Assembly (NCBI RefSeq): GCF_004010195.1
Contig: NC_057721.1
Location: 34,905,166 to 34,969,165 of the forward strand
Reading direction: 5' to 3'
DNA from: Chiloscyllium plagiosum
Lineage: Eukaryota
DNA: 64,000 nucleotides
Shown: piece after piece, positions 2,368 to 56,300 of the stretch
Numbering within the stretch: position 1 is the stretch's first letter
Layout of the letters: the number at the start of each line of letters is the position of its first letter
Translations under genes and position numbers: made by a program
Notes under the pieces: generated by a model
What the model was told of the DNA's origin: nothing
Databases searched by the model: none
Seen by the model: the letters and a program-made list of their open reading frames with translations, nothing else

Positions 2368-3452
2368 TAGAGTTATAGAGTCATAGAGATGTACAGCACG
2401 GAAACAGACCCTTCAGTCCAACCCGTCCATGCCGACCAGATATCCCAACCCAATTTAGTCCCACCCTCCAGCAGCTGGCCCATATCCTTCCAAACCCTTC
2501 CTATTCATATACCCATCCAAATGCCTTTTAAATGTTGTAATTGTACCAGCCTCCACCACCTCTTCTGGTAGCCCATTCCACACATGCACTGTGCTCTGCA
2601 TGAAAAAGTTACCCTTAGATCTCTTTTATGTCTTTCCCCTTTCACCCTAAACCTATGTCCTCTAGTTCTGGACTTCCCCCACCCCAGGGAAAATACTTTG
2701 TCTATTTATCCTATCCGTGCCCGTCATGATTTTATAAACCTCTATAAGGTCACCCTTCAGCCTCTGATGCTCCAGGGAAAACAATCTTTCCCTATAATTC
2801 AAATCCTCCAACCCTGGCAACATCCTTGTAAATCTTTTCTGAACCCTTTCAAGTTTCACAACAACTTTCCGATAGGAAGGAGACCAGAACTGCATGCAAT
2901 ATTCCAACAGTGGCCTAGCCAATGTCCTGTACAGCCGCAACATGACCTCCCAACTCCTGTACTCAATACTCTGGCCAATAAAGGAAAGCATACCAAATGC
3001 CTTCTTCACTATCCCATCTACCTCTGACTCCACTTTCAAGGAGCTATGAACCTGTACTCCAAGGTCTCTTTGTTCAGGAACACTCTCTAGGACCTTACCA
3101 TTAAGTATATACGTCCTGCTCAGGTTTGCTTTCCCAAAATGCAGCACCTCACATTTATCTAAATTAAACTCCATCTGCCACTCCTGAGCCCATTGGCCCA
3201 TCTGGTCAAAGATCCCATTTAAATCCAATGTAACCTTCATAACTGTCCACCACACCTCCAATTTTGGTGTTGTCTGCAAACTTGCTAACTATACCTCTTA
3301 TGCTCACATCCAAATCATTTATAGAAATGATGAAAAGCAGTGGACCCAGCACCGATCCTTGTGGCACTCCACTGGTCACAGGCCTCCAGTCTGAAATACA
3401 ACCCTCCACCACCACCCTCTACCTGTGAGCCAATTCTGTATCCAAATGGCAG
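2368..3452 (-). mobile_element. 5'-truncated CR1 (HER1-like) LINE with 3' end
   Basis: ORFs 3206-3415 and 2662-3279 carry [26 protein letters not shown] and LYRTLARPLLEYC. (CTCTATGA)n-type tail at 2368-2388. Confidence 0.93.
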
Positions 3453-3919
3453 TCAGAATAAGGTCAGCCCAGAAAGATCACATCAACCTGCTTCCACAGG
3501 AGTCAAGCTGGTAAGTAACCTGGAATCCATAAGAACCCTTGGTGCTCAGTGGGCCAATTGTACCTGCACCACAAGAGAGGTATCTTAGCAGCTTTGTTAC
3601 CAATGGCCAGCAGTAAACAGTTACAAAAGATATGTCTAAAGTGCTGCCAGCAATCATCTGCCCCTTCAAATGGGGTGTCCACTTGCTGACTACACAAGTT
3701 TGGGTTTGTGCCTGGCATAACCATCAATGTAGCATTCCAAAGAAGCTTTGAACACCTACTAAATTCCTTTTCCGGGGTTTTTTTTTCTCTGATTTATAAT
3801 TAGAAGATGATTAATACAAATTATGAAGTTGTGCTAACTAATCTCTCTGTATAAAAAGATAAAATCATTTGACACCAAATTTAAGATACTCTTGACAATG
3901 ACAGTTCAAGGAATCTGAC

Positions 3920-23359: not shown

Positions 23360-24008
23360 NNNNNNNNNNNNNNNNNNNNNNNNNNNNNNNNNNNNNNNNN
23401 NNNNNNNNNNNNNNNNNNNNNNNNNNNNNNNNNNNNNNNNNNNNNNNNNNNNNNNNNNNNNNNNNNNNNNNNNNNNNNNNNNNNNNNNNNNNNNNNNNNN
23501 NNNNNNNNNNNNNNNNNNNNNNNNNNNNNNNNNNNNNNNNNNNNNNNNNNNNNNNNNNNNNNNNNNNNNNNNNNNNNNNNNNNNNNNNNNNNNNNNNNNN
23601 NNNNNNNNNNNNNNNNNNNNNNNNNNNNNNNNNNNNNNNNNNNNNNNNNNNNNNNNNNNNNNNNNNNNNNNNNNNNNNNNNNNNNNNNNNNNNNNNNNNN
23701 NNNNNNNNNNNNNNNNNNNNNNNNNNNNNNNNNNNNNNNNNNNNNNNNNNNNNNNNNNNNNNNNNNNNNNNNNNNNNNNNNNNNNNNNNNNNNNNNNNNN
23801 NNNNNNNNNNNNNNNNNNNNNNNNNNNNNNNNNNNNNNNNNNNNNNNNNNNNNNNNNNNNNNNNNNNNNNNNNNNNNNNNNNNNNNNNNNNNNNNNNNNN
23901 NNNNNNNNNNNNNNNNNNNNNNNNNNNNNNNNNNNNNNNNNNNNNNNNNNNNNNNNNNNNNNNNNNNNNNNNNNNNNNNNNNNNNNNNNNNNNNNNNNNN
24001 NNNNNNNN
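23360..24008. other. Assembly gap (649 N)
   Basis: N run. Confidence 1.
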
Positions 24009-36682: not shown

Positions 36683-37299
36683 ACTACCTTGCATATTAAT
36701 TTTAAAGAATTTCTACAGGAAACTCGTTTGTACTTCCTGCTTTCTCCCTTTGTTGTCTCATTTCTGAACGTTTGTCTATAAATTGGTCAGAGGTGTTGCT
36801 GTTTAGTGGTATTACATTACGCAGGGGCCATTGTGAATTAATTATAGTGCAGCCAATGTGGTAACGGTCAAATGAAGTATTTTAACTTACCAGGGGTTTG
36901 TACTGGCTTCACATTGTTAAAGAAACACATCGGTTATGATAATCCTTTTGGGATTTCTCAATTACTCCCAAACTTAGAAATGTGGATTGTTGTGATTTGC
37001 CATGAAGCAGATTTGAAGTTTGGCAGTTACCTAGTAATGTGGAATGGGGGCAGCTTTCCGAGAAAAAAATGGAGCATTACTATGTCGCTGATGCCTTGCG
37101 ACAACTGTTTTTGGCAGAATGTTAAAAATCACACAACACCAGGTTATAGTCCAAAAGGTTTATTTGGAAGCACTAGCTTTCAGAGCACAGCTCCTTCATC
37201 AAGTAGCCTTCATCATTTGGCAGAACCTGAACACTACAACTTCCTTTCCAGAACAGAGCTGTGACAGGACACAGGGACAAAGCGTTACACTCAGCAGCT

Positions 37300-38439
37300 C
37301 AAACCAAATATTTAGCTGACGCATGCATTTAATTCCAATCTTTGTTCATGTAAGTGTCCAGGAGCTGAAAATCTTATTTTGAATCAATTTGATTACGCCC
37401 CATGCGCTGTCAGATACAAGTGGTGTTCGACTTTCTCTTCTAGAGTCTAGTCGGCTTACTAGAAATCTCTTTGCATTTACCAATTATCATCAAATTTGCC
37501 CCCGTTATAAATAATTTCATTCGTCAGTGTGAGTACTTGGAAGTTAATCTACTTGCCCTGAACTTCGATTTTAAAAATGTTTCTAAATTTATCATCCAAT
37601 AACCGTTTCCACCTCCGCTCGAGTTTGTAAATTGAATTCTCAATATTTATACGCGATAACCTTTTACACTTTATGCATGATACGCCAATCATTTGAATTC
37701 GATGTGACTTCAAATCTTTTTAACGAAATAATTGAACACTATTTTCAGCGCGAGAACAGGTCGAGGAATTCCTCTCTCCTGCGGTATTGAACAATAATGT
37801 GGGGGGGGGGGGGGGGAGCGGGGATTGGTGGAACAATTGAGCCATTTCAGTCAATATTCAACTTCCCCACAAAGGCAGATTAGTTGTGATTTCTCAAAGG
37901 CGGAAGGAATCACCCCAAACTGTTCAGGAGTTTCTACTGCATTTGTCAGCAGGGGTCTTCGAATACCTGGCTGGCTGGCGCAATCTACATTCACGCAGGG
38001 GAACGAAAAGCGATTGACTCAAACACGAAATGGTGGAAGATCTCAGTATGTATTACATCAAGTAGCTTTTTTTCAAAAAAAATAAATTGCGGGCTTTATA
38101 TTGGGGTCATAATTTTGAACATTTCTTTAAAGCGATGTATAACACAGAAGCAATAATCCAGTAAATAATATCGCCCTTAAAAAAAAAGTACGAGCTAAAA
38201 ATTGCCATACAATAAACAGCGAGGTAGGTGATTCATTCGCCTTGATTTTCATAGTGGCCAGCAGCCCTGCTCCATTGCCTACTTACAGCTTTTTCTGAGT
38301 GCAGATGGTTTTGACAGTTTGGTTTGGTCGCTCGCCTCTGCTTTTTCCTCCAACCACCACCTGAGCAGAAACGCGAATCGTTTGCAGACACTCGGAGATT
38401 AAGAAAGTTGCAGAGGCTGCAGGGTTCTTTCCCGATGAG
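37300..38439 (+). promoter_or_regulatory. CpG-retaining promoter/5' region of the Ig-domain gene
   Basis: Elevated CpG from ~37300 to ~39500; ACTTCCCC at 37861 and GGCGGAAG at ~37899 (ETS/PU.1-type); G-run at 37801-37817. Confidence 0.55.
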
Positions 38440-38494
38440 ATGAGCTGGACCCGAGGTTCCCTGATGGCTGTGCTCTCCAGCTGCTGGCTGCAAG
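38440..38494 (+). CDS. Ig receptor exon 1, leader MSWTRGSLMAVLSSCWLQ
   Basis: Phase-1 donor AAG|gtacat; 83-nt intron with branch-like ccctaac and ctctttcag acceptor, joining in frame to the Ig exon. Confidence 0.85.
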
Positions 38495-38577
38495 GTACAT
38501 CACGCGAGTACCCCTTGTTTCCACTGAGTCCCACAGGAATGGAGCTGTTCCCTAACCTTGTGCACCATCTCTTTCAG

Positions 38578-38925
38578 CTTTACTACAAACAGCGGCCGCT
38601 GCAGCAATGCCCAGAGTGGTCAAAGGGAGAGTTAATAGCAGCATATTCCTGGAAGTGTCATTCGCCAATATCACTGACCAGGTCGACACGGTAGAGTGGA
38701 AGTATGTGAGCCCCAATACCCGACGCTCTATCGTCCAGTTAATGTCAGAGGAAGAGAAATGGAACACCCATTGGTTCAGCGGCTACTCACAGCGGGCACG
38801 AATCTACCCGAACCATTCCCTCTCCATCCAGAATGTGACTCTGAATGATTCCGGGACATATTCCTGCACAGTGACAGATTGGAATGGAGACGAGTTCACC
38901 GAGGACGTTGTCGTGACCGTGATCG
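38578..38925 (+). CDS. Ig receptor exon 2: leader end plus V-type Ig domain
   Basis: C-strand VEW, RARIYPNHSLSIQNVTLNDSGTYSC, G-strand VVVTVI; phase 1-1; donor G|gtgagt. Confidence 0.92.
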
Positions 38926-41593
38926 GTGAGTGTTGGGTATTCAATATCACAGACATTCATGGAATGAATTGCAATGAATCGTTGTCATTGGGAAACAGGG
39001 TTGTAAGTGGTGGGAGACATTGCGCGCTGCCTGTGCGGGTAGGTTGTGCGGGAACTGGAGGAAAACGCTTTGACATTTTTGATGTGTCTTTGCTTGGTTA
39101 CATTTTCACCTTTAAACAAAACCTAGACAACTCAATAGAGCAGCTAAAATCAGTGTTGTCCCTCATAAAAACTCACTGCTCACATCATTGCTTCCCATTT
39201 CTGTAAGAGCAGTGGTTGGAGACAGGAGACAGAAAAGTTGTGATTCTCCTCCTCCAGTGTTACTGAAAACCCCGTTTACTTGAGTAACTTTGTCCTCGAA
39301 CTGACTTTACCACATAGACTGTCATCTAGAAATATCAATGATTATTAGCCCACTACTTCCACATCACGAATCACTATGAAGTGCATCAATTATTGCTTTA
39401 GACAAACTGAATTGCAGGGACCAAATAATCCTCACTACAACCTTCAAACTCCGTGCAGTCTGCTCGACAGAAATCAGGGAGGATCAAACCATTTTTGTTT
39501 AGGTGCTCCTGCTTTTTATAACCAATCCATCAGGTGTGTCTGAGGACCGCCTTGTACAAGCGCCAAAAGAAACTTACAGGAGTCTACTGCCCTCCAGTTT
39601 AAAAAAAACACATCCAACAAACCCGTAATTTAAAATCCAAATTTAACAAAACAAATGGAGACTCACAAAAAAAAACTATAAAGTTGCGGGATGCTGGAAA
39701 CCTGAACCGAAAACAGAAATTGCTGGAGAAACTCTGGAGGTACATGAAACTCATTATGTGCGAAGACAAAGCAGGACCCAATAAGTTTGCTTGTCTTCAC
39801 AGAGCTACTGAGTTTCACCAGTAATTTCTGGGGTTTTCTTTGTTTAAACTAAAAGGAGTCGTTTACAAGTCGACTATCTCAGGATTGGCTTAGGGCACAG
39901 ATGGAACCGTAAGAGGTGAGTTCTGCCAATGGAAAGAGAAAAGCACAATGCAAACAGCAGAAGGATCACCGGGCTCTGTGTGCACTGCAAACGGGACAAA
40001 GGGTTCTCGAAGGAACAGCAGTTAGTTTGCATTAAGGTTGAAAAGTGTCTGTCATTGAAGCAAGTGATTAGCGTGAGTCCTTTGAATGTGAATGAGTCAT
40101 TTCACCTCCACCCCCATGTCTGGCTTTCTGAGGGTCGGTACTCTCATAGGCGAAAATTCTCATTGACGCCTCTGAGTTATAATGCTGAACTCTTTTTTTC
40201 TTGTTGTATCTCTTTTCCCCATCCCACCCCACCCCACCACACGTCTCCTCTTCCTTAAATGTCATCAAACTGCGGTCATTGTTTAGCGTGTGGGCCACAA
40301 AGGAACCAGTATCGCTGAAAGTCTTGGTGTTCAGCTTTTGTGTCGCCCTAGTGGTCTGGCAGTTATGTAAATTGGAAAATCCCAAGCATTTTCTTAAAGG
40401 TTACAGAGAGTGTTTTAAATCCTGTGAAGGTTATGGTTTTCGGATTGCGCAATCGAAAGACCACTTGAAACTTGATAGGAATGGAGATATTTTGCAGTTT
40501 GCTGGAGACGGAGTTGAGTAATTCAAGTGGCTATCTCTCCACATTCACCTCCCTCAACCCCCTACCCCGCCACTCCCCAGACACAATCACTTTGCCTTAA
40601 CGAAAGACGGAGCAAACTGGCGGGGAGTCTGAACCACTAATCTGCAGGCGTAATGGATGCATCAGGTACACATTCGTTACAATTTGGACAAATATCAATG
40701 ACAAAGGGCACCACAGGGAAACTGTATGAATGGCTGCACAGACTGAAATAGAAAGCAAAGGAAGATGCATTGATCAAAATGTCCAACAGGTTTTCCTCTG
40801 TTTTGTACCACTCTGCCTATCGTCAATTGGCCACTGTTTGAGAATTTGAATTCAGTTTAAATTAAAAGCGGGCTGTATGTAAATCTGCTGAATTGTTTAA
40901 GACAACTCACCTACTAAAGTTACACCCTTTGGGAAGGAAAGCTGACATCCTGACCAGGTGAGCCCCATGCCAATGTGCTGCCTCTTAACTGGTTAATTAT
41001 TAACAGACGGTACTTAGTTTTATATGTGTGCCGCAAACGTCAACTGATGTACCATCACTATCTCCACACAACGAGGAATGGGGACTACTATGTACCAGAG
41101 ACATTAAACAAAACTAATTGTGACCTTAGCTGAAGCGAGGAATTGTGTACAGAACATGCCTAGATGTGGATCTTTGGTTCTCTTCCCATCCATCTGGAGA
41201 GCAACCATATCAAAGTCAATACATTCTCTATCACCTTTCTAATTTGTGGAAGGGAACATGCTGCCAAGTTCACAAACAGGAGTTGTTGTACTCAGAATGT
41301 TAATCTGTTACCTCTCATCTGTTTCTTTCTCCACAGAAACTACAGAATTGCTGAGTTACTCCGGTCCATTATATTTTTATTTCAAATTTCCAGAATCTGC
41401 AATATTTTGGGTTTTTTATCAGAAACAGAACTTATGATTTCAAGAATTCTTTATGCTTGCATTATTACTGTATTCTGTTGTGTACATCTTTCTCTCTTTA
41501 AAATTATTTTGCTTCTCAGATTTAGTGAGGGGCTAGCCTTTCAAATAGGCCTTCCCAGTGTTCTGCATTATTAAATCCAGCAAGATTCATTGT

Positions 41594-41913
41594 CATAGAG
41601 TCCCTACAATGTGGAAACAGGCCCTTCAGCCCAACAAGTCCACACTGACCCACCGAAGAGTATCCCACCCAAACTCATTCCCCATTACTCTACATTTACC
41701 CCTGACCAATGCACTTAACCTACACATCCCTGAACACTATGGGCAATTTATCATGGCCAATTCACCTAACCTGCACATCTTTGGACTGTGGGAGGAAACT
41801 GGAGCACCTGGATGAAATCCACGCAGACACGGGGAGAATGTGCAAACTCCACACAGACAGTCGCCCGAGACTGCAATTGAACCCAGGTCCTTGGTGCTGT
41901 GAGCCACCATGCT
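41594..41913 (-). mobile_element. HE1-like SINE (intron 2)
   Basis: Core and tail match the other copies. Confidence 0.85.
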
Positions 41914-42555
41914 GTGATTATGTCTGTGTAGGATCAATGAATAAGGAACTAACAGTATTGGTGCCCCGTTTATGTGCAGTATGAAAGGAGCATTTACCAT
42001 TGCTGTCCGCTCACAGAAAACATTATCAATCTAACTTCTCTGACTTCTCTGTCATCCTCACTAATTATAAATCCATATTTTCATTGCTTGGTTCTTGCAG
42101 TTTGGATTTGTTTGCATGTGGAGTGTGTCTTATGGATAAAAACCATGCAAGTGCAGTTGTACTCCAAAGTTTTTATAAATTAACAAAGTCAGAGTTGCAT
42201 TTTGTGAAATTAGTGGGATTATGTCAAAATAAACTATCAGATTTGCAAATTAGTCACGCATCTTTTTTTCCAAAAATATACATTATCATTATATTTTAAA
42301 AATTACTTTAGAAAATACTTTAATTTAAAATTATAGAAGATACAATAAAATTCATTTCTTTTCCAGCATGCTCCACCCTTAGCTGTGATAATACAATTGT
42401 CATACTCAATATATACAAAACACATCCCTTGTCAGGCATTCATTCTGAAACTAGAACATTTTGAATGGAAAAATTACTGAAAGTGCAATAAATAAACTGT
42501 TCACTGTGCACCATTTTTGACTATGAGGTCCCTCAGAACAATTCAATGCTCTGGA

Positions 42556-42861
42556 TTAGATTACATTACAGTGTGGAAACAGGCCCTTCGGCCCAACAAG
42601 TCCACACCGACCCGCCGAAGCGAAACCCACCCATACCCCTACATTTACCCCTTACCTAACACTACGGGCAATTTAGCATGGCCAATTCACCTGACCCTGC
42701 ACATCTTTTTTGGACTGTGGGAAACCGGAGCACCCGGAGGAAACCCACGCAGACACGGGGAGAACGTGCAAACTCCACACAGTCAGTCGCCTGAGGCGGG
42801 AATTGAACCCGGGTCTCAGGCACTGTGAGGCAGCAGTGCTAACCACTGTGCCACCGTGCCG
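42556..42861 (-). mobile_element. HE1-like SINE, young CpG-rich copy (intron 2)
   Basis: Intact head gcggcacggtggcacagtggttagcactgctgcctcacag and B-box ggttcaattcc; possible TSD tggat. Confidence 0.9.
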
Positions 42862-44193
42862 CGTGGATGTTCACAGGTACTTACTTTCAGACCAAAGGGT
42901 TCTACAGTTTCCAACCACTCATTGTACTTCAGCTGAAAAGCTTTCAGCAGTGCCTTTTCTTCATTGCACCTCAACAACAGCTGTTCCAAGCTTTAGTGCA
43001 TTTCACAACACATAGATTTGGATGTTAAAATGTGCCAGAAAATGTTTAGCAGATCAAAGACATCCATCCTTTCATTGAGTTGATCATCCTCCAATTGCAA
43101 TTAGTATTTATGTCAATGCTCTTTCAAGGGAACTGCATGCAGAGTGCAATTTTGCTTCACAGAGCAGTTTAAGTTGAACCTCAATTAAACAAAAATTCTC
43201 TCCAGAGAATTCTGTCTTCTTTGCAAAAGTACTATTCATAGGGAGATGGACAACAGTCTGTTCTCCGCCACAACTGCCATGAGGGCAATGTGTAAAGGCA
43301 TTAAGATTCCAGGAAAGATCCAATGGGAAGGGACTTTCTAACCATCAGCCAAGCTACATCTTGATGCTTGTCTATAGGTGCTGGTCAGTCCACCAAATTG
43401 CATGTACAGTCTTATAGGGGCTCTGGTGTACACTACTTGATGCACATGTGATCAAAGGTGTTTTTTTCTGCATAATCTTTCCACAAAGGGCAATTTACAC
43501 CATAGTCCAACTTCTTGGAGCATTTCATAACAATGTGGCCAGACCAAATATTTCCAGCACTAATTGAATTTCAGAACTTCAAGTCCTTGTGAGTGAGTTG
43601 ACTTTCTTGGCCTGTGGATTGATTGCTAAATCTAATGGGATTGATTAATGGAAAAACATAAATCATAAATCTGACAATGGCCCAATCAATGGGAATGGAT
43701 TGGGTAGCAATAAAAGCAGCATTTCTGGCTGTAAATAACTCCAATAATCTCATATAAATGCAAAAACTGTGGACACCTGAAATACGAAATAAATACAATT
43801 CCAAAGAAGATTCATACCAGACTTGAAATGTTAACTCTGTTTCTTTCTCCACAGATTCTGCCAGACTGCTGAGTTTCTCCAGCATGCTCCAAAATTATCC
43901 CAACTCTCTCCACATGCCACTAGCTTGACCTTCTGCTGACTCCATAACAAAGTTTTAGGACTATGCTTAATTCCTCAGTAGTTTCCACAGTTTCCAATTG
44001 CTGTCCAGTCTCAGAGTTTCTTAAGTCATGTCCATCTGGAAGCACATATACTAACCATTATTAAAAATGGAAATTTCCTACATCTTGTGGCAAAATGTCC
44101 GCCTGATAGTATCCCAATTCACAAAAACGTGATTTGTAACAAAAGTCAACTCCACTTTTGTTGTTAATTCCTTGTTCACATTGTCATTTTCAG

Positions 44194-44271
44194 GTGAAAT
44201 ACAGATATATAACGGTTGGAACACAACTGGAGTCTTTAACCTGACTTTCATGAAAGCTAATGAAACCAATG
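44194..44271 (+). CDS. Ig receptor exon 3: stalk GEIQIYNGWNTTGVFNLTFMKANETN
   Basis: Acceptor ttgtcattttcag, donor G|gtaaga, 78 nt, phase 1-1, open; three N-glycosylation sequons. Confidence 0.8.
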
Positions 44272-44893
44272 GTAAGAATTCTGTTTGATCAGCGTTCTGA
44301 TCATTTTGTGAAACTAATGCATAGGATATAAAAACAGAAATAGCAAATTAAACTTACACCAAAATCCCAAATATAGATTAAAAGTTAATATATTTCTATC
44401 AATATTCTGTTCTTTTTTTCCATCATCTTCTAAAAATTATCCCAACTCTTTTAAAACTCTTTATTCACTTGATTGAAATGTGTAGGGAATTGCAGCATTT
44501 GACCAAATAAATAATGTTTGTCTCCATTATCTCCTTGTATCATACACAGCCCAAAATAAGTTTTGAGTACATATGTAGGCGGATAATTTGGTGTCACACA
44601 GTAGGAGTGATATATCGTTGGGTGTGTTTCAATTGAATTTTGGTAGCATGTAAACAGACTCCCACTTTCTTGGTCAAAATGGTAATTGTTGTAGTTAGAA
44701 TTATAAATTTGTAAAAGTGCTTAACTGAGAACACATTCATAACATGACAATGCCCAATAATACTTGGTTATAAAGAAGTAAAGTGCACATCTCCTGCTGC
44801 TGCAGATTCTTATTGAATTATGGTCATATTTATTTAAGGAACATTTAGTCAATCCCACCTGATTTCATCTAACATATTTAATTTACTTTTTAG

Positions 44894-45016
44894 ATTACAA
44901 GGTTTTTGAAAATTATGGTTTGATAGCTGCCTTATCTGGAACAGGAGCATTAATCATCATAGCTATTTTCACATGGGCTGTTGTGGGACATTGCAGGAGA
45001 AGGTCAAGAAGGCAAG
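44894..45016 (+). CDS. Ig receptor exon 4: TM DYKVFENYGLIAALSGTGALIIIAIFTWAVVGHCRRRSRRQ
   Basis: Acceptor tttactttttag, donor AAG|gtaagt, 123 nt, phase 1-1; hydrophobic helix followed by a basic stop-transfer cluster. Confidence 0.9.
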
Positions 45017-45266
45017 GTAAGTGGAGCCAAAATAATAATGGATAGCCATGTGACTGAGAATGCAAAACTAAAAAGGATTCTATGCTAGTTACTAATCAGG
45101 CACCAGTAGGTGACAGAAAATCAACATTGATTAAAATATCTTGTTTAACTAGAGAAAGTAATCTGGAATTAGTAAAATAAATTGAAGTAGTTGAAGTTAA
45201 AAAAAAAACAGTTGTCTAATACAGTTCAGTGAAGGAACCTGCAATCCCTACCTCCTATTTATCACT

Positions 45267-45597
45267 GCGGCACGGTTGCTCAGTGGTTAGCACTGCTGCC
45301 TCGCAGCACCAGGATACCAGGCTCGATTCCAGCCTTGGGCGACTGCCTGTGTGGAGTTTGCATATTCTCCCCGTGTCTGCGTGGGTTTCCTCCGGGTGCT
45401 CCGGTTTCCGCCCACAGTCCAAAATGTGCAGTTCAGGTGAATTGGCCATGCTAAATTGTGTTAGGTACATTAGTCATTAGTCTAATATTAGGTCCATTAG
45501 TCAGAGGGAAATGGGTCTGGTGGGTTACTCTTCGGAGGGCTGGCGTGGACTTGTTGGGCCAAAGGGCCTGTTTCCATGCTGTAGGTAATCTAATCTA
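45267..45597 (+). mobile_element. HE1-like SINE (intron 4)
   Basis: gcggcacggttgctcagtggttagcactgctgcc head; (taatc)n tail. Confidence 0.9.
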
Positions 45598-46789
45598 AAA
45601 CTATAATACCTTGTCAATGTGCTTTAACTCTTACATGCCCACAAAAGTGATTCAGTTGTACCAAAATATGACACAATTCAAAACGAAAGCTCCTCACAAA
45701 CTCCAACACCACTTTAGAACAATGATATGTGTGCAATAAATGTTGTTCTTGTCAGTAAAATCCATAACCAAGAATTAACTTAAAGAAAAAATAGCCAAGT
45801 ATTGTTAATAACGACAATGTAATTGATTCCTAAAAAGAATTTCCACTCTGCAATTTAGTCATGAAATGTGGTTACTTATTAAACAATTGATATGTCAGTA
45901 CAGATTTACTGAAAGGCAATGATTGATGAGGAAAAATGTGTGAAAGTCTTTGTAAATTTCTGTCTGGATTCTCTTTCAAGTTTGCCCTCAGTTGGTGGGA
46001 GATCTGAGGGAAGGCAAAGTTATTTTTCTCTACAAGAAGAATGATGATGTTAATGTGAGATACGAATAAATAGGGAAAAATAGAGACTGAGCCAGAGTGG
46101 GTATGTTATCTGTCAGCAAGAAGAAGAAAATCTTGATCAATGAAAGGAATTTTAAGGAAGAAAGGAAAATGGAGAAGTTTAAATCACTAATTAACATATT
46201 AATATATTGAAACAATAAGCATAATTAAAGAGGATACATATCAGGATCAGATGAATTATAAAGTTAATAACTTTCTGAAAGTTAAGTTCACTGGTGAATG
46301 CACAGAGGTACTAAAAACATTTTTTTTAAATGATTAACTTCAGTGTATTTGCTAGTTGAGACTGCCAAACCTCCTTTCACCCAGGATCCTTACAGGAGTT
46401 TTGCTCCACTCAGTAAACTTTCTCATAATCACCTATGATCTTAACAATTTTGGAAAATGAAACTTAAGATGTCTCTGAACTTTTCCATAGAAAAAAATCA
46501 ACAATATAATGTTCCATTGTGTTGATCGTAACTAATCCCGTGTAATTATTATCATTGTTATATAATAGTAATGTAGTAAAAATAACCATACATCAAGTAA
46601 TATGTTGTAAGCTTTTGTCGTCAAATTTTCCTGTTATGTCACTCATCAAACTGGTTGTTTTAAGGCTTTGGAAAATACAGAACATAACAGAGACCACAAC
46701 CACAGACACCTCTAGGGCTGATAAACCACAAACATTGCACTCCAATCTTTTGCTGAATGCTGATAACACAAATAAGTAAACTGGTTTGC

Positions 46790-47577
46790 ATACATGGAAA
46801 CAGTATAGCAATTGATGGGCTGATGGGCCAAGGAGTGGCAGATGGAGTTTAATTTGGATAAATGTGAGGTGTGACATTTTGGTAAGACACAACAGGACAG
46901 GACTTATACATTTAATGGTTGGGTCCTGAGGAATGTGGCCAAACAAAGAGAGCATGGGATGCAGGTTCATAGTTCCTTAAAGGTGGTTGGGTATAGGAGT
47001 CAGGATGTCATGTTATGACTGTACAGGACATTGATTAGGCCACTTTTGGAATACTGCATGCAATTCTAGTCTCCTTCCTTTCAGAAAGATGTTGTGAAAT
47101 TTGAAAGGGTTCAGAAAAGATTTACAAGGATGTTGCCTGGGTAGGAGGATTTGAGCGAGAGGAAGAGGCTGAACAGGCTGGGCTGTTTTCCCTGGAGCAT
47201 TGGAGGCTGAGGGGTGACCTTACAGAGGTTTATAAAATCATGAGGGGCATGGAAAGGGTGAACAGCCAAGGTCTTTTCCCCAGGGCACAGAAGTCCAGAA
47301 CTAGAGGGCACAGGTTTAAGATGCGAGGGGAAAGATTTAAAAAGGATCTAAGGGGCAACTTTTTCAGGCTGAGGATGGTGCATGTATGGAATGAGCTGCC
47401 AGAGGAAATGATAAGGGTGGGGACAACTAGAACATTTAAAAGGTATCTGGACAAGGATACAAATAGGAAGGGTATAGAGGGATATGGCTAAATGCTGGCA
47501 AATAGGAATGGATTAATTTAGGATATCTGGTGGGCATAGATAAGTTGGACTGAAGGGTCTGTAATCTCTATGACTTT
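46790..47577 (+). mobile_element. CR1 3' part
   Basis: TRGHRFKMRGERFKKDLRGNFF..VWNELP and a 3' UTR ending ctctatgact. Confidence 0.9.
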
Positions 47578-48384
47578 ATAATTACCTTAAAGCCCATAAA
47601 ATGTAAAGAATGGTGTGCATCATAACAAGTCACCCAGCAAACAACTCATACTGAGAGTGCAAATCAATTCATTTTATCATTGTTTGCATCAACAAATGTC
47701 ATGTAAGCACACAAGCAACTTCCTTACAAGATAAACCATTCTGAAACAATGACCTTTGTTTTCTTAAAGTAAGTAATACCATATAATGCATGTACATAGA
47801 TAAAGTACGATTGATGTTGAAATAAAAGTGAAAAATGCTGGAAATTCTCAACGGGCTAGGTCACACCTGGAAAGAAAAACAGAACTAATTTTTTGTGTTG
47901 ATTCATTTTCTTTATTCATCCAAAGATATAATAGTCAGTATTAAAGTAAAGTATAAATCTGAAGTGTAATAGTTTTTAAAAATTCTAAGATTTCAAGAAT
48001 TAACGTATAATATTTCAAAATCAAAATCTTAAGATATGTTCAGATGCATTGGTGGAATTTTAACTTCACAAAATGCATAGTTTTAGAGTCATGGAGACAT
48101 AGAGATGTACAGCATGGAAAAAGACCCTTTGGTCCAACCCATGCTTAACAGATATCCCAACCCAATCTAGTCTCACCTGCCAGCATCTGGCCCATGTCCC
48201 TCCAAACCCTTCCTATTCATATATTCATCCAAATGCCTCTTCAATGTTGCAATTGTACCAGCCTCCACCACTTCCCCTGGCAGCTCATTCCATACACGTA
48301 CCAACCTCTGCGTGAAAAAGTTGCCTTGTAGGTCTCTTTTATATCTTTCCCCTCTCACCCTAAACCTATGCACTCTATGCACTC

Positions 48385-48555
48385 TTGTGCAGTCCTTGCA
48401 TGGTATTTTGTACACTACATTCGTCTTGCTCATGTTGGGTATCGGGTCCTTCGTTCTGGTGACAACAGAACAACAACTCACCAGAACGAAGGACCCGATA
48501 CCCAACGTGAGCAAGACGAATGTAGTGTACAAAATACCATGCAAGGACTGCACAA
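48385..48555. repeat. 78-bp-arm inverted repeat derived from a Penelope GIY-YIG segment
   Basis: Arms 48385-48462 and 48478-48555 differ at one position, with a 15-nt spacer; they encode TRTKDPIPNVSKTNVVYKIPCKDCT. Confidence 0.9.
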
Positions 48556-49024
48556 NNNNNNNNNNNNNNNNNNNNNNNNNNNNNNNNNNNNNNNNNNNNN
48601 NNNNNNNNNNNNNNNNNNNNNNNNNNNNNNNNNNNNNNNNNNNNNNNNNNNNNNNNNNNNNNNNNNNNNNNNNNNNNNNNNNNNNNNNNNNNNNNNNNNN
48701 NNNNNNNNNNNNNNNNNNNNNNNNNNNNNNNNNNNNNNNNNNNNNNNNNNNNNNNNNNNNNNNNNNNNNNNNNNNNNNNNNNNNNNNNNNNNNNNNNNNN
48801 NNNNNNNNNNNNNNNNNNNNNNNNNNNNNNNNNNNNNNNNNNNNNNNNNNNNNNNNNNNNNNNNNNNNNNNNNNNNNNNNNNNNNNNNNNNNNNNNNNNN
48901 NNNNNNNNNNNNNNNNNNNNNNNNNNNNNNNNNNNNNNNNNNNNNNNNNNNNNNNNNNNNNNNNNNNNNNNNNNNNNNNNNNNNNNNNNNNNNNNNNNNN
49001 NNNNNNNNNNNNNNNNNNNNNNNN
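48556..49024. other. Assembly gap (469 N)
   Basis: N run. Confidence 1.
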
Positions 49025-50491
49025 CCTTACTGAAGTCCATATAGATCACATCTACCGCTCTACCCTCATTAATCCTCTTTGTTACTTCTTCAGAAAACTC
49101 AAACAAGTTTGTGAGACATGATCTTCCACACACAAAGCCATGTTGACTATCCCTAATTAGTCCTTGCTTTCCAAATACATGTACATCCTGTCCCTCATGA
49201 TTCCCTCCAACAACTTGCTCATTATCAACGTTAGTCTCACTGGTCTATAGTTTCCTGGCTTGTCCTTACCACCCTTCTTAAACAGTGGCACCACGTTAGC
49301 CAACCTCCAGTCTTCCGGCACCTCACCTGTGACTATCGATGATACAAATATCTCAACAAAAGGCCCAGTAATCATTTTGCTAGCTTCCCACAGAGGTCTA
49401 GGGTACACCTGATCAGGTCCTGGGGATTTATCCACCTTTATGCATTTCAAGACATCCAGCGCTTCCTCCTCTGTAATATGGACATTTTGTGAGGTGTCAC
49501 CATCTATTTCCCTACAGTCTATATCTTCCATATCCTTTTCCACAGTAAATACTGATGCAAAATACTCGTTTAGTATCTGCCCCATCTCCTGCGGCTCCAC
49601 ACAAAGGCTGCCTTGCTGATCTTTGAGGGACCCTATTCTCTCCCAAGTTACCCTTTTGTCCTTAATGTATTTGTAAAAACCCTTTGGATTCTCCTTAATT
49701 CTATTTGTGAAAGCTATCTCATGTCGCTGTTTTGCCCTCCTGATTTCCCTGGTAAGTATACTTCTACTTCCTTTATATTCTTCTAAGAATTCACTCGATC
49801 TATCCTGTCTATACTTTACAAATGCTTCCTTTTTTTTAACCAAACCCTCAATCATCTTTAGTCATCCAGCATTCCCCATAACTACCAGCCTTTCCTTTCA
49901 CCCTGACAGGAATATACTTTCTCTTTATTCTCATTATCTCATTCCCAAAGGCTTCCTATTTTCCAGCCGTCCCTTTACCTGCGAACATCTGCCCCTGATC
50001 AGCTTTTGAAAGTTCTTGCCTAATTGGCTTTTTGCCAATTTAGAACTTCAACTTTTAGATCTGGTCTAACCTTTTCTATCACTATCTTAAACCTAATAGA
50101 ATTATGGTCGCTAGCCCCAAAATGCTCCCTCACTGACACCTCATTCACCTGCCCTGCCTTATTTCCCAAGAGTAGGTCAAACTTTGCACCTTCTCTAGTA
50201 GGTACATCCATATACTGAATCAGAAAATTTCTTGTACACACTTAACAAATTCTTCTCCATCTAAGCCCTTAACACTATGGTAATCCCAGTCTATGTTTGG
50301 AAAGTTAAAATCCCTTACCATAACCACTCTATTATTTTGATGGAGGTTGGAGGTTAAAGTATTAAAAATTTGAATTCTGAGACATCCTTTCTACCAACCC
50401 ATCCAATTCTATGCCATCTAAGCAATGGTTCAGATGGGACTCTGAAATTGCAAATTCCACTGGGCAATTACTCCTTCATCTGGAGTTCTCC

Positions 50492-51230
50492 ATAAGACCA
50501 TAATACATAATAGCAGAAGTTAGGCCACTCAGCCCATTTAGTCTGCTCTGCCATTCAATCATGGGTGACAAGTTTCTCAATCATATTCTCCTGCTTTCTC
50601 CCTGTAACCCTTGATCTCCTTGACACTCAAGAACCTATCTTCCTCAGTCTTAAATTTACTCAGTGATGAGGCCTCACAGCCATCTATGGCAATGAATTCC
50701 ATAGATTCACCACTCTCTGTCTGAAGATGTTTCTCCTTATTTCCATTCTAAAAGGTCTTCCCTTAATTCTAAGGCTATGCCCTCAGTTCCAAGTCTCTCC
50801 TACCAATTGGAAACATCTTCCCAACATCTACTCTGTCCAGGCCACTCAGTATTCTATTTGTTTCAATTAGAGCCACACTCATCCTTCTATCGAGTATAGA
50901 TCCAGTTCCTCATATGTTAAGCTTTTCATTCCTGGGAATATTCTTGTGAACCTCCTCTGTACACACTCTCGGGCCAGTGCATCCTTCCTGAGATATGGGG
51001 CCCAAAACTGTGCACAATACCCCAAATATGGTCTGGAGCCTCAGATATACATTGCTGCTTTTATATTCAAGTCCTTTCAAAATAAATGCCATCATTGCAT
51101 TTGCCTTCCTTACCACTGACTCAACCTGCAAGGTTACCTTGAGAGAATCCAGAACTCTCAAGTCTCTTTGCACTTCAGATTTCTGAATTTTCTCTCCATT
51201 TAGAAAATAGTCCATGCCTCTATTCTTCCT
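50492..51230 (-). mobile_element. CR1 3' part, third subfamily
   Basis: YFLNGEKIQKSEVQRDL..KANAMMAFILKGLEYKS; (TCTTATGG)n-like tail. Confidence 0.88.
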
Positions 51231-51231
51231 A

Positions 51232-51480
51232 GATTAGAGTGGTGCTGGAAAAGCACAGCAGTTCAGGCAGCATCCGAGGAGCAGTAAAATCAACGTTTCG
51301 GGCAAAAGCCCTTCATCAGGAATACAGGCAGAGAGCCTGAAGGGTGGAGAAATAAGTGAGAGGAGGCAGGGCAGACGAAATGACCTGGGAGTCACAGTGG
51401 GAGAGGGACTCTCTGAGATACTTGTAGAGAGAGGAGGAAAACTTCTTCAAGGCAGGCATCCTTGCAAGAGGATTCGCAGT
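51232..51480 (-). mobile_element. Penelope-like 3' terminal fragment
   Basis: Same terminal family as 16922-17015 and 25940-26040. Confidence 0.75.
51287..51323 (-). ncRNA. Minimal hammerhead ribozyme motif
   Basis: ATTC-CTGATGA-A-GGGC-TTTT-GCCC-GAAAC-GTT-GAT: intact core, perfect helix II and an NUH triplet. Confidence 0.7.
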
Positions 51481-52714
51481 AGTAATTCAGGAGATGTTAG
51501 ACTATTAAATTAGTCTAACTCCTGGATAACTATGACCCCCACTTTATTCCACACTCCCACAACAGAGTTCCCCTAGACTCTTTCTACTTCCCAGAACCTC
51601 ACATGACCTCTCTCGCCCTGGAACCAGGACCCTTTCCCGCTGCTTGACACAATTCCCTCACTCCCTCCACCAAAGTTGACATGAACCCAAAGACCCAACA
51701 TTCCTCCTGCTTCTACACGGGACCTGATACCCCACTTTCTGCTGGACCCAATATCTCCTATCCACCCAAACCTACCCAAAACACTCCATCACCTATCCTG
51801 TGGAAAAGCAAGCCATGACTTTCCTATAGAGATAGGCTTTGAAAATCAAATTGGCACATATATCGGACTTTGGAAATTATGTCTTATCTATTCTCATTGA
51901 CTTCAATGACCACAGCGGTTTGTAAAGGCAATCAGTGATATACCCACGAGTAGATTCTCTGCTATCTTCATTGATAAAGTCAGAAGCTGTTATCATTTTT
52001 ACCACCAATGTGATACAGTGTGTTTCACACCTACCAACCCACACCATCCACCAACCCCAACCATCCAGAAAAATACACTTTATAAATCATAACTTCTAAA
52101 CAATTGTGGATGGCAGTTGCTTTCCTGTGAAATTTGCCCAGATATCACTGTACCACAATTTCAGACCATGTTATCATTGCAGTGGAAATTTGCAGGTGGA
52201 GAAAAATACAATTGGCTTTGGAGAAACTGGTGTGACAGAACTTGATTGGCAATGTGTAATTAAACCTCTTTAGGTACAGCCAGTCTGCCGTTATACAGCT
52301 GGCAATGATGTAAAACCAGTAAACATGTAGCGCACAGCTGTCAAACCCCAGATATGGCTGATGATCTGGAGTTGTGTTTCTGCATGTTTGAATGCTCATT
52401 TTTAACATTGGGAAAAGTGCAGGAGAGACAGCCACTTCTGTTTTAAGTGAAATACATTATATACTTGAAAAATATATCAGCATTTTGTAAACTAAATTGC
52501 AATGTTATGCAAAGATTATGCAACCCTTGCTGTGAACTTTAAATGGTGTGAGATTTCCTGCCAGACAGTTTCTCACACCTCCAAACTTCATTGGTCTCAG
52601 GAGTCAAATCAGGAACTCACTTCCAAGTTACACCACTATTTTCATTTTGATACCTCCTCATTTCAAAGTGAAAGTGATGGCATATATTAAAACAAGATTA
52701 AACTGAGACATCAG

Positions 52715-52753
52715 CCTCAATTGTAATTCGCCGATCTTGCACCCCACCCCCTG
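52715..52753 (+). CDS. Possible extra cytoplasmic exon ASIVIRRSCTPPP (39 nt)
   Basis: Strong donor CTG|gtaagc and phase 1-1 in frame, but the acceptor lacks a pyrimidine tract. Confidence 0.3.
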
Positions 52754-53224
52754 GTAAGCAGGAAAGGAGAATTAATTCTGCACGTAGATACAGAATGACA
52801 TGTACTGAAACAGGAGATGCATTTAGAATAGTTATTGGTAACATGCTTCTCTTGCAGTTAATCAGGTGCCCTTTTATTTCAAAGGCTGGTGGATGCTTTT
52901 TTAAGATCACCAATTACATCAAAAGCAATATTTCTGGAGGCCTCCTGTTAACCCTCTCAGATAAGACCATGTAGAGGTCTTAGAGAAGAGGAGTATAAAA
53001 GAAGTACATAACAATGGAGGAAAACAGATAAGATTTGACAATCTCACTACTTTGTACTTAATTATTATAGATACAAATCAATGTCCTGAATCTCCCTGTC
53101 GATTAGAAAGCACATATGACATCTTGCAGTCCAAGTTTAGTGTGCAATCATTTGTAAATATGATTGTTGCTCCATTTCTTGAAGGAACACTCACCATAAT
53201 CATATTTTATTTTTATCTTGACAG

Positions 53225-53313
53225 GTAAAACAACGAAGGATAAACAATCTCATAAAGATAGAAACAATGAAAGTGATGACATCTATGAAAACATGGGCAG
53301 GGTACCACAATAA
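53225..53313 (+). CDS. Ig receptor terminal exon GKTTKDKQSHKDRNNESDDIYENMGRVPQ*
   Basis: Strong acceptor ttttatttttatcttgacag, phase 1, acidic YENM phosphotyrosine motif, TAA at 53311-53313. Confidence 0.82.
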
Positions 53314-56300
53314 ATGTGGTCGTAGACACAAGACATTTAAAAACTGTCATGACCTCAGTTGTGCCAAAGTGATCAATTATTTTGTCCCCTTGATCAATAG
53401 AGGAACACAAATTTTTAATGTTTTTCTAAATACTCCTGCTGTAACTCTGGTGAGAATGTGGGTAAGCCTACAAACTAAGTTGATAGTACGAGCGGTGCCA
53501 TATATCAGGAATTCAGGTAGCCCTGATTTGGTGTGAAGCTTCTGTCTTATGTGAATAAAGACACTGGCACAGAGACAGTGAGCACTCCACTCACTTGTTC
53601 TTGTAACTCTGGCCTCTGAGAAACATAGTCTCTCTTTGGAAGCCAGGGTGCCAAGAAGATTGGGGCATGTGATTTTTGACGTATTTAAATGCCTTTTTTG
53701 GGAGGGAAAACAGCTCAGGCACCAAGGTTTCAATTTCCAGTCCCTTCCAATAGCCTGATATGTATTCCTGGAGGTACTTGTTTCGACTTTATAGTTGATG
53801 CATCTTTGCAGTGACTCCTTACAATGCAACAGCATCTGGGTCAGAGAAGCAGCAGTGAACTTCCTCCTGGCATAATTGTCAATAATGCCGATTGATCATT
53901 TCAGCATTTAAACATGCAATTTGGCCTCCAGTTTTATATGTTGTCCAGATGTATTTGAACTGGTTCCTTTGTTGTTTTATTAACCATTGAGAAAAGAAAA
54001 CTTGAATCATAGAATTCGGCAGTATGGAAGGAAGAGTCCATCATGCATCTGCTCATCTACTCAAAGAGGATCCACTCGCTTGCTCTCTTCCCATATCCTA
54101 GTACTTCCTCTTAAAAGATAATGTACACCTAGTTCCTGATATTAGTAGAATACCTAACAATTCTCCATTGAAAATCCTAATCTTCAGACTTTTGAACACC
54201 TGTTCAAGTCCCTCTTTATCTTTCTTCCACTAATTAGAAAAGCCCAGTTTCTCAAACCTTGTATTACTTTGTTACCTGAATGAACCTTCTTGGAATGGAA
54301 ATTGGAGACAATATTCTGTAGCCTAACCAATGATTCAGGTAGTGATACCTCTTTGTTTATGTACTATGTTTGAAATTGCAAAACCTGAGATACCAAATGT
54401 TTGTTTGATGATAAAATGGCCAATTTGATCTTCCATTTTAAATGATCTGTATAACTGTTCATTTAGCATTAATGTTTTAGCATTTATTTTCTTTTTTGTC
54501 ATTTTCTATGTTTATAATTCACCTTTTTTCTTCAAAAATGTATCACTTTATATTTTGCCCTCTTATATTTCATGCAACCTGTCTCTGGACAATTTAAAAA
54601 TCATTAGCCTTTGAAATTACAAACATTGCAAATTTTCTCAGAATGGCTCACACTTCACTCAAAATGTGCCAAAACCCTACACTGTACTTAACCAGGTGTC
54701 AAGACCCTGACCCCTGGCTAAAAGGTTGGGGAGATCTTGTTCACAAACTTGCCAGCCACACCAAATAATTTAACACTGGAAGACATCTGTCCATGTGTGG
54801 AGGTGTAGTCCAGCCTCAGAGATCTCTTGGCAATTGGATGACGAGCAGCACCAAGACCCAGAAGCAGTGGGTGGGCGTGGTGTTCACTCTTAGGACCACA
54901 GCAAGTCCTAACAAAGAGGAGCCCAGACTTAGAGGTAAGCCCAGAGTAATTTTGAGGCCAGGTGGCAGATGCCTTGAAGGGAATGAGAACAGGGTTTGAA
55001 AGTCCAGGGAAGTGGGCGAGGAGAGAATTATGAACTTCGGGTGTTGGGTGAGGGGTTCTGTCGTGCCTTTAATGGGCTCAATGATGGGGACCCACTAACT
55101 AGGTTCAGCTCCCTCCCATCTTTGCCTCACACCAACCCACACAGTGCTGGGGAATTCCAATGTGGACACTACCCCTGTCACAGGTAATAAATGAGAGTGC
55201 CTTCCCCACCTCATGAGTCCTCCATGGTGAGTGGCTCTCCAATATCCATTCCACCTTTCATTAACTTTCACACAGGTCAGAGGCAAGCGGACAGATGGTG
55301 CAAAAGCCAAACTGTGAATTTTACATACTACCCAACTTCAAATTTTCCAATAGGAAAGTGTATAATCTAAACCCTAACCTTGTGTTTAAATAGACATGCC
55401 AGTGCAATTATAACAGCAGAGCAAGACCAATATTGAGGAAATTCCCATCGATATTTCAGTTGCTCCCTATTTACTTTGCTTTTGTAAATTTCTAAACTGT
55501 GTTCTAATGTTAAAGTATCGACATAGATTTTTTAGTAACTGGGGACAAAATGTCAGATTAACAAAAAAAATGAAGACAGTGTTCTTATAAAGCATTGTTA
55601 GGGAATGAACATTACTCTTCTTTAAGCAAATCCTTAATTTGCTGTTCTTTTTGTCAAATTAATAATGCAGCATTTCAGTTTTCCCTGTTCCTGAGAATCT
55701 TTCCTGCTGTTTTAATTCTTAAGTACTACAACAAAGATGTATATTTGCTTGTATTCAAGATTTAACTTACTGTTTCTAACATTACAAAATGTGTGCACTG
55801 AAATTAGCTTTAAATGCTACTTAATCTGTCCTGTTCAATCCTTTCCAGATGGGTGTAATTCATAGATGGCTAGGTTATATGTAACAGGCCGCATGCAAGG
55901 TCGAGTCTGAGATAATAATGTTGATTAATCGATGATGTTCAGTTTTTTTGATGAGAAGACAAGACTGATGATCCAGAATGACAATTATAACTTCTCAAAC
56001 ACAGAATTATCCTAAAAGTTTACACCGAGTATTCTGACTGTAGAATGTGAATGAATCTCACAGACAATTAACGGTCTGGGTGTGTGTTTTTTTAAGTGAC
56101 TAGAAACTTGTCAAAGGTGATTGAGTGAGAATGGTTTTGTAGGAAACAGACACCGACCTATGGACAATCATTAGCAAGCAAGTGTGTGGCATCTTTATTG
56201 TTTATATAATCAAATAGAAGAGGGGAATATATATCTTTGCTAAACTGTATAATATTTGTTTATTTTTCTTGTGTAAATAAAAGTCATTATTGGTTCAAGG

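Follow-up and report, generated by a model that had tools for sequence, protein, structure and literature searches.

LOC122555553, a gene on chromosome 12 of the shark Chiloscyllium plagiosum, represents a real orthogroup of the immunoglobulin superfamily that is annotated yet apparently undescribed, and its architecture is a familiar one. It was examined in a 64,000-nucleotide stretch of DNA (G000:C12:34905166-34969165, referred to here as the window). On balance, it is somewhat probable that the product of this gene is a cell-contact receptor on leukocytes that recruits p85 of PI3-kinase through a phosphorylated tyrosine in its tail. The analysis itself shows the gene structure, the fold, the conservation among chondrichthyans, the position in a gene cluster, and the conservation pattern of the tail motif on which this proposal is built. 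No description of LOC122555553 was found in the literature by six family identifiers or by topic, in a search whose scope did not extend to subscription papers, bioRxiv supplements, or shark single-cell marker tables; the six identifiers were also absent from the supplements of PMC11599192 (nine files) and PMC13262535 (one file).

The coding sequence built from the window is open over 693 nt in five exons and encodes 230 residues plus a stop codon. All five exons have AG/GT ends, every junction falls in phase 1, and all 230 residues of the translation match RefSeq XP_043557513.1 (uncharacterized LOC122555553 isoform X1, Chiloscyllium plagiosum), in agreement with the five-exon, phase-1, 230-residue model proposed by the initial annotation of this DNA. 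The succession of leader, single immunoglobulin V domain (IgV), stalk, transmembrane helix, and tail that it described is likewise upheld by Pfam, an AlphaFold model, and hydropathy. The coding features are as follows:

38440-38494, forward strand, 55 nt: exon 1, leader peptide, with the ATG at 38440 and a phase-1 GT donor; the leader is kept in orthologues.
38578-38925, forward strand, 348 nt: exon 2, single IgV domain, placed by Pfam V-set and Receptor_2B4, the structural model, fold searches, and aligned columns.
44194-44271, forward strand, 78 nt: exon 3, glycosylated stalk with sequons N144, N150, and N157.
44894-45016, forward strand, 123 nt: exon 4, transmembrane helix at about residues 169-191 and a basic stop-transfer stretch with Cys194, placed by hydropathy and the model.
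53225-53313, forward strand, 89 nt: exon 5, cytoplasmic tail and stop codon.
53284-53295, forward strand: tyrosine motif YENM, residues 222-225, with the consensus D-[IVT]-Y-E-x-M-G-[RK]-V-P.

With a hydropathy peak of 1.28, the predicted leader reaches no more than moderate hydrophobicity. The hydropathy maximum of 2.13 falls at residues 169-187, where the model also places a helix; the transmembrane sequence has no charged residue, and Trp188 is invariant in orthologues. Neither a splice-site scan nor immunoglobulin profiles detected an extra immunoglobulin exon in introns 2-4, and none of the nine full-length orthologue models contains a C2 domain. A 469-base N gap at 48556-49024 sits in intron 4 and cannot conceal an ectodomain C2 exon because it lies 3' of the transmembrane exon.

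The proposed signaling role draws on the tail. Residues 218-230 form the most conserved block of the protein (mean pairwise identity 0.77 among nine species), and the stalk exon together with the C'' strand forms the least conserved region (0.42). The residues Y, E, M, G, V, and P of this block are invariant in nine of nine chondrichthyans, and the tyrosine, the Glu at +1, and the Met at +3 are also fixed in all four aligned sturgeon and paddlefish rows. Within residues 222-229, the second position after the tyrosine (pY+2) is the sole freely varying column, with N in four chondrichthyans, S in three, and K in two. When the 37-residue tail was shuffled 20,000 times, YxxM arose in 2.5% of cases and YxNM in 0.2%. 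None of the 17 tails examined contains an immunoreceptor tyrosine-based inhibitory or switch motif (ITIM or ITSM). According to PMC3787023, the SH2 domain of Grb2 prefers pY-X-N-X and that of PI3K prefers pY-X-X-M, and PMC4263166 states that in Grb2-dependent immunoglobulin tail tyrosine (ITT) motifs YXN is strictly conserved, in contrast to YXXM. Because the Met is fixed and the Asn is free in the LOC122555553 family, the reverse of the ITT pattern, p85 would be the selected partner, and the conserved tail signal is likely of the p85/PI3K type and not clearly a CD28-like dual one.

The initial annotation had read YENM as a CD28-like dual motif. Its YxxM component holds in nine of nine chondrichthyans, but the Asn that determines Grb2 binding is found in only four, being missing in the elephant shark, horn shark, white shark, Mustelus, and sawfish. 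A receptor of the CD28/DAP10 kind, binding both Grb2 and p85 through YxNM and losing Grb2 binding secondarily in some lineages, would nonetheless account for the YENM of those four species, for the two tandem motifs (IYTNM and IYENM) with Asn kept in both in five of five sturgeon and paddlefish records, and for the IYGN of the candidate tail exon of the shark paralogue B (see below). Several independent losses would then be needed among the five chondrichthyans without Asn, and the strictness of YXN in the known Grb2-dependent ITTs also argues against this explanation, which we regard as unlikely.

The tyrosine motif could instead serve mainly as an endocytosis or sorting signal (Yxx-hydrophobic, AP-2 type), so that the protein would be a cycling adhesion molecule or ligand scavenger like CTLA-4 (YVKM). 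PMC11599192 assigns a supporting role in clathrin-mediated endocytosis to mammalian YVKM and to teleost YxNF. The Y-E-K-M of Mustelus and Pristis resembles the CTLA-4 motif, and a free pY+2 position fits sorting equally well. However, sorting signals tolerate other bulky hydrophobic residues at +3, a position at which all 13 aligned rows of this family have Met, and the acidic residues before the tyrosine suit a kinase site. We therefore give a principally sorting role only a small chance, while noting that sorting and signaling roles are compatible and not exclusive.

Orthologues were collected with an index-free search of 1.84 billion representatives, in which the C. punctatum orthologue as query gave 320 hits, the best 150 of which were examined. 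Together with further searches, it places full-length orthologues in nine species (C. plagiosum, C. punctatum, Hemiscyllium, Scyliorhinus, Mustelus, Heterodontus, Carcharodon, Pristis, and Callorhinchus), with an additional truncated model in Cetorhinus (basking shark). The chondrichthyan relatives show 31-95% identity, the nine full-length models span 222-232 residues, and these orthologues form one branch of a 43-row V-domain tree (96/95). Searched against the C. plagiosum genome, the Callorhinchus protein has LOC122555553 as its top match (46.9 bits, with the next at 32.4). Alternative or truncated models in Pristis (P0157, P0158) and Cetorhinus (P0008) diverge exactly at the exon 4/5 and exon 3/4 junctions, which suggests that intron positions are conserved among the Pristis, Cetorhinus, and C. 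plagiosum genes. Automatic names disagree (uncharacterised, TIGIT-like in the epaulette shark, VSTM5-like in the horn shark, and RAGE-like), an expected outcome because a named orthologue is lacking.

Sturgeon and paddlefish proteins are probably orthologous to LOC122555553 as well. They are reciprocal best hits and have their layout and tail end in common with the sharks, and a search of the shark genome with the paddlefish protein ranks LOC122555553 first (42.7 bits, against 27.5 for the runner-up). Their tails score z 3.9, compared with -0.1 for a further shark paralogue, paralogue C, and a profile built without the sturgeon rows ranks the full-length sturgeon and paddlefish proteins directly after the sharks (75-95 bits versus 61-70 for paralogue C). 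The suggestion of the initial annotation that this may be a receptor of cartilaginous fishes is probably too narrow. No teleost or tetrapod orthologue was found in word-indexed searches or among the best 150 of the 320 index-free hits, which is weak evidence and insufficient to show loss; one of the two word-indexed searches passed over three known family cluster representatives (P0007, P0008, and P0009). A lungfish match (P0170, E 5.8e-4) was rejected as a two-V protein without a tyrosine motif.

The ectodomain is a single V-set domain without the canonical disulfide, as first annotated. Exon 2 matches Pfam V-set (E 5.8e-11) and Receptor_2B4 (30.8 bits, cut-off 21), and the AlphaFold model gives a V-set fold with a predicted local distance difference test score of 75-90 across residues 31-130. 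The disulfide is absent because Val45 (38655-38657) replaces the B-strand Cys; Cys115 of the F strand (38865-38867) and Trp59 are present. The B-strand Cys is missing from 10 of 10 chondrichthyan V domains and present in four of four sturgeon and paddlefish rows, and the F-strand Cys is kept. Since the sturgeon proteins hold both canonical cysteines, the missing disulfide may be a chondrichthyan-specific loss, which does not alone prove CD2 ancestry. The V domain carries sequons at N38, N49, N97, N104, and N108, and by model and alignment strands C, C', C'', F, and G of C. plagiosum are free of all eight ectodomain sequons. Five of nine orthologues, C. plagiosum not among them, have an extracellular Cys near the membrane that could give a disulfide-linked dimer, as in the CD28 family, and the common cytoplasmic juxtamembrane Cys could be palmitoylated.

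Relationships of the V domain were examined further with a 28-row tree, made from the 43 rows by dropping four near-duplicate and 13 more distant ones and adding two shark TIGIT-type exons. This tree splits nectin/TIGIT/CD200-type domains from a side containing the LOC122555553 family, its paralogues, and SLAM-like and CEACAM-like domains (86/83, unstarred). In the approximately unbiased (AU) test, grouping with TIGIT was rejected (p=0.0069, with one mammalian TIGIT row, identified by PDB match), as was grouping with CD200-like exons (p=0.029). Clades with SLAM-like domains (p=0.152, rows from shark only) and with CEACAM N domains (p=0.117) were neither recovered nor rejected. In the best tree the family, the sturgeon proteins, and both paralogues fall on one side of a weak branch (58/88).

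Among known families, the likeness of LOC122555553 to CD2, CD48, CD84, NTB-A, 2B4, and CEACAM1/3/19 lies in the V domain without the B-F disulfide and in the Receptor_2B4 match above cut-off. CEACAM N domains and CD2 are among its best single-domain PDB sequence matches, and with CEACAM1 the D-E-F stretch aligns (a local similarity) with sequons at the same three places. Unlike these families, it has no C2 domain and keeps the F-strand Cys, and its sturgeon relatives have the B-strand Cys; the ITSM of the SLAM branch (TxYxxI/V) occurs in 0 of 17 family tails, and in place of the ITIM or activation motif (ITAM) of transmembrane CEACAMs there is one conserved Tyr in YxxM. Profiles of the C2-set family, used in an attempt to place CD2, gave no match anywhere and are uninformative here. 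The term CD2/SLAM/CEACAM-like is therefore a fair description of the V domain, whereas membership of those families fails on the C2 domain and the tail; the CD2/SLAM-like label of the initial annotation survives in the former sense, given the tree side and the absent disulfide, and not in the latter.

With the CD28 family (CD28 YMNM, ICOS YMFM-type, CD28X EYEDM, CD28H), LOC122555553 has in common a leader, one IgV, a stalk, a transmembrane segment, and a short tail with one YxxM. PMC11599192 defines that family by a PPP/EIP proline motif in the loop resembling complementarity-determining region 3 (CDR3) and by a YxxM/YxNx tail, and describes CD28X as a YxxM receptor in sharks, sterlet, and gar, not found in teleosts, with other genomic neighbors. 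LOC122555553 differs in lacking the PPP/EIP motif, the canonical disulfide, and the transmembrane YxxxxT; the CD28-type PPP pattern occurs in 0 of 14 V domains, and the CDR3-like loop in C. plagiosum reads TDWNG. The neighbors identified for LOC122555553 are CD200-like, nectin/CD200R-type, TIGIT-type, ARL13-like, and syntaxin genes, and the accessible part of PMC11599192 does not mention CD200, TIGIT, or ARL13B.

Within approximately 1.06 Mb of chromosome 12 around LOC122555553, and farther along the chromosome for paralogue C, the following features were identified:

G000:C12 34.26 and 34.40 Mb (L113:156-530; L127:4113-4526), reverse strand: a pair of V exons of the TIGIT/CD226 type, both with the canonical cysteines and a TFP motif.
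G000:C12 ~34.59-34.63 Mb (L058:8536-8919; L054:6524-6658; L054 ~2355-2430), reverse strand: paralogue B.
G000:C12 34.81 Mb (L036:995-1387 and 3181-3603), forward strand: nectin/CD200R-type V+C2 gene.
G000:C12 34.94-34.96 Mb: LOC122555553.
G000:C12 35.02 Mb (L010:8967-9299, L011:878-1264, L011:3063-3239), forward strand: CD200-like gene with two tandem V exons and a transmembrane exon.
G000:C12 35.13 Mb: ARL13-like exon.
G000:C12 35.16 Mb, strand opposite to the ARL13-like exon: syntaxin frame, which we take to be STX19 after the human arrangement.
G000:C12 60.61-60.63 Mb (L075:9730 to L077:5097), forward strand: paralogue C.

The CD200-like V exons lie about 60 kb downstream of LOC122555553 and have OX-2 as their best PDB match (E 2.3e-12). 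Mammalian CD200 has a V+C2 layout, unlike this shark gene, whose exons are two V and one transmembrane and in which no C2 exon was found. About 135 kb upstream is the V+C2 gene, whose C2 domain matches nectin-3 and CD200R1; its transmembrane and NPxY tail exons were not found in the next 135 kb, and its name is provisional. The two TIGIT/CD226-type V exons are 91% identical, and the copy at 34.40 Mb has a transmembrane exon 3.4 kb downstream with no C2 exon in between; this gene is a candidate shark TIGIT under a provisional name, no tail exon having been found. LOC122555553 forms an orthogroup of its own; together with paralogues B and C it makes up a set of three related genes on this shark chromosome. 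Paralogue B has a V exon with neither canonical cysteine, a transmembrane exon, and the candidate tail exon with the Grb2-type IYGN, and is nearer to paralogue C than to LOC122555553. Paralogue C has a single-V layout and the tail VVYSTYV...YPNY, with orthologues in Cetorhinus, Carcharodon, and Callorhinchus that are all uncharacterised or automatically named. The gene had originally been called an orphan; no 1:1 orthologue of a well-known gene was found, but RefSeq carries an annotation for it, two paralogues lie elsewhere on chromosome 12, and it sits in a CD200/TIGIT-type cluster.

Human TIGIT, CD96, and CD200R lie in the same region as CD200. We consider it very unlikely that LOC122555553 is orthologous, at high divergence, to BTLA or TIGIT, which are named mammalian genes of that cluster. 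Both are single-Ig receptors, and Cd200 has Btla as a flanking gene in human, mouse, and rat (bioRxiv 10.1101/2023.08.29.555319). The epaulette-shark orthologue is the one automatically named TIGIT-like, a TIGIT V domain ranks exon 2 third in the genome (28.6 bits), and TIGIT resembles LOC122555553 in its single IgV and transmembrane segment, its genomic cluster, and the presence of a tail tyrosine motif. Against TIGIT stand the AU rejection (p=0.007), the absence of an ITIM, and distinct, better-scoring TIGIT-type exons, one at a distance of 0.55 Mb (35.3 bits) and one at 0.7 Mb (33.6 bits); moreover, the PVR-family motifs (V/I)(S/T)Q, AX6G, and T(F/Y)P occur in 0 of 14 V domains, while the TIGIT control has all three (3/3). 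BTLA has a tail with a tandem ITIM and ITSM according to PMC12151841, a combination absent from the family tails, and BTLA was not among the listed rows of the PDB and fold searches for this V domain.

LOC122555553 encodes a type I membrane protein of 230 residues, in which the single IgV is followed by a glycosylated stalk and the tail carries one conserved tyrosine. In the proposed mechanism its V domain would bind a partner on an opposing cell by way of the front GFCC'C'' face, the surface that CD2/SLAM/CEACAM-type domains use. Clustering would lead a Src- or Syk-family kinase to phosphorylate Tyr222, which is preceded by acidic residues; the resulting pY-E-x-M would dock p85 and raise PIP3/Akt signaling as a co-stimulatory or survival input. 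Grb2 binding would be an option open only to lineages that carry Asn at pY+2. Because the transmembrane segment has no charged residue, the receptor would be expected to signal by itself, without a DAP10, DAP12, or FcR-gamma adaptor. The cell type, ligand, phosphorylation, and binding are the parts of this proposal that we infer, and from sequence a role in either co-stimulation or adhesion can be suggested.

It is also important to note several observations that weigh against this proposal. The S and K codons at pY+2 are each one base change from N codons and the sturgeon and paddlefish proteins hold Asn, so the Asn may be ancestral; Grb2 binding may likewise be ancestral and dispensable, because both tandem motifs of the sturgeons retain Asn. 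Nor does a match to the motif establish p85 binding, because the YXNM of the mIgG ITT binds Grb2 only and not p85 despite its match (PMC4263166). The glycan-free front face is seen in only six of nine chondrichthyans and in none of four sturgeon and paddlefish rows (sequons at aligned positions 60, 63, 65, 79, and 112). Searched with the model, the fold ties CD166, nectins, NTB-A, TIGIT, and CD48 (Z 16.2-15.2, root-mean-square deviation 1.6-2.0, 94-104 residues aligned), matches that confirm a V-set but pick out no family; another fold search gave a similar picture. When the family profile and the paddlefish protein were used to query the PDB, multi-Ig proteins came back and no single-Ig receptor was prominent among the results. 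For the sturgeon proteins, a V-only profile gives 63-70 bits, barely over the 54-65 of paralogue C, and a clade of shark and sturgeon domains is absent from the V-domain tree, though not rejected (AU p=0.096). Finally, the assignment to leukocytes is drawn only from the neighboring genes and the motif, and by language-model features the clusters closest to this protein are those of VSTM5 (0.97), a neural adhesion protein.

The last point raises the question of whether LOC122555553 encodes a non-immune adhesion protein of the VSTM5/HEPACAM type, neural or epithelial, that lies in the CD200 cluster by chance. VSTM5 also has one V domain, a transmembrane segment, and a short tail; the horn-shark orthologue and an elephant-shark paralogue are automatically named VSTM5-like, and CD200 itself is expressed in neurons. 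The VSTM5 clusters are the top feature matches in the Atlas and the paddlefish protein matches CEACAM19 there (0.96), but the Atlas returns the nearest clusters even if unrelated and without alignment. A VSTM5 orthologue should appear among the sequence matches, yet the best 150 of the 320 hits show no other protein of about 200 residues besides the family and its paralogues, and LOC122555553 differs from VSTM5 in having a stalk exon and a conserved tyrosine motif. A non-immune role is an improbable explanation.

Among living lineages whose immunity is based on antibodies and T cells, that of the cartilaginous fishes is the oldest. Co-receptors lost in mammals keep turning up in them in recent surveys, such as CD28X and CD28HL1-3 (PMC11599192). 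A broader and more doubtful scenario, which we put forward only tentatively, is that an ancient jawed-vertebrate co-stimulatory family was born in the CD200/TIGIT cluster and left three shark paralogues with different tyrosine tails, among which LOC122555553 would give a PI3K signal through a CD2/CEACAM-type domain; the gene would have been kept in cartilaginous fishes and sturgeons and lost in teleosts and tetrapods, and would be an activating counterpart of the neighboring TIGIT- and CD200R-type genes. Independently of that scenario, a conserved YxxM receptor located in this cluster would bring a CD2/CEACAM-type branch into the ancestral co-receptor set and would offer a marker and a testable signaling tail for shark lymphocytes, and the N/S/K variation that occurs naturally at pY+2 lends itself directly to comparing p85 with Grb2 recruitment. 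Because the architecture is familiar, LOC122555553 extends the catalogue and changes no principle.

Three further features of the gene were recorded around the coding exons:

38030-38045, forward strand: alternative first coding exon of isoform X2, which reproduces XP_043557514.1 exactly when spliced to exons 2-5.
37251-38750, no strand: CpG-enriched stretch over both first exons, from CpG observed/expected in 500-nt windows.
53554-53559, forward strand: candidate polyadenylation signal AATAAA, by pattern match only.

Isoform X2 (217 residues) has no clear leader; because its 16-nt alternative exon displaces most of the leader, this isoform may bypass the secretory pathway. In the 500-nt windows starting at 37251-38501, CpG observed/expected is 1.10, 0.91, 0.78, 0.74, 0.53, and 0.71, compared with 0.00-0.43 upstream of 37251 and 0.46-0.52 from 39001, and the enriched stretch is likely the promoter region. 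Transcription of LOC122555553 is suggested by the RefSeq models and by conservation; a look-up of the stretch spanning exons 1 and 2 listed no RNA data set containing it. A second assembly gap in the window spans 23360-24008 (649 N), and most of the other long open frames of the window resemble fragments of long interspersed nuclear elements or other repeats. Elsewhere in the genome, shark V exons without the canonical Cys pair that are more distantly related to the family were noted on L002 (C37), L005 (C101345), and L088 (C8), matching the family profile at 28-47 bits.

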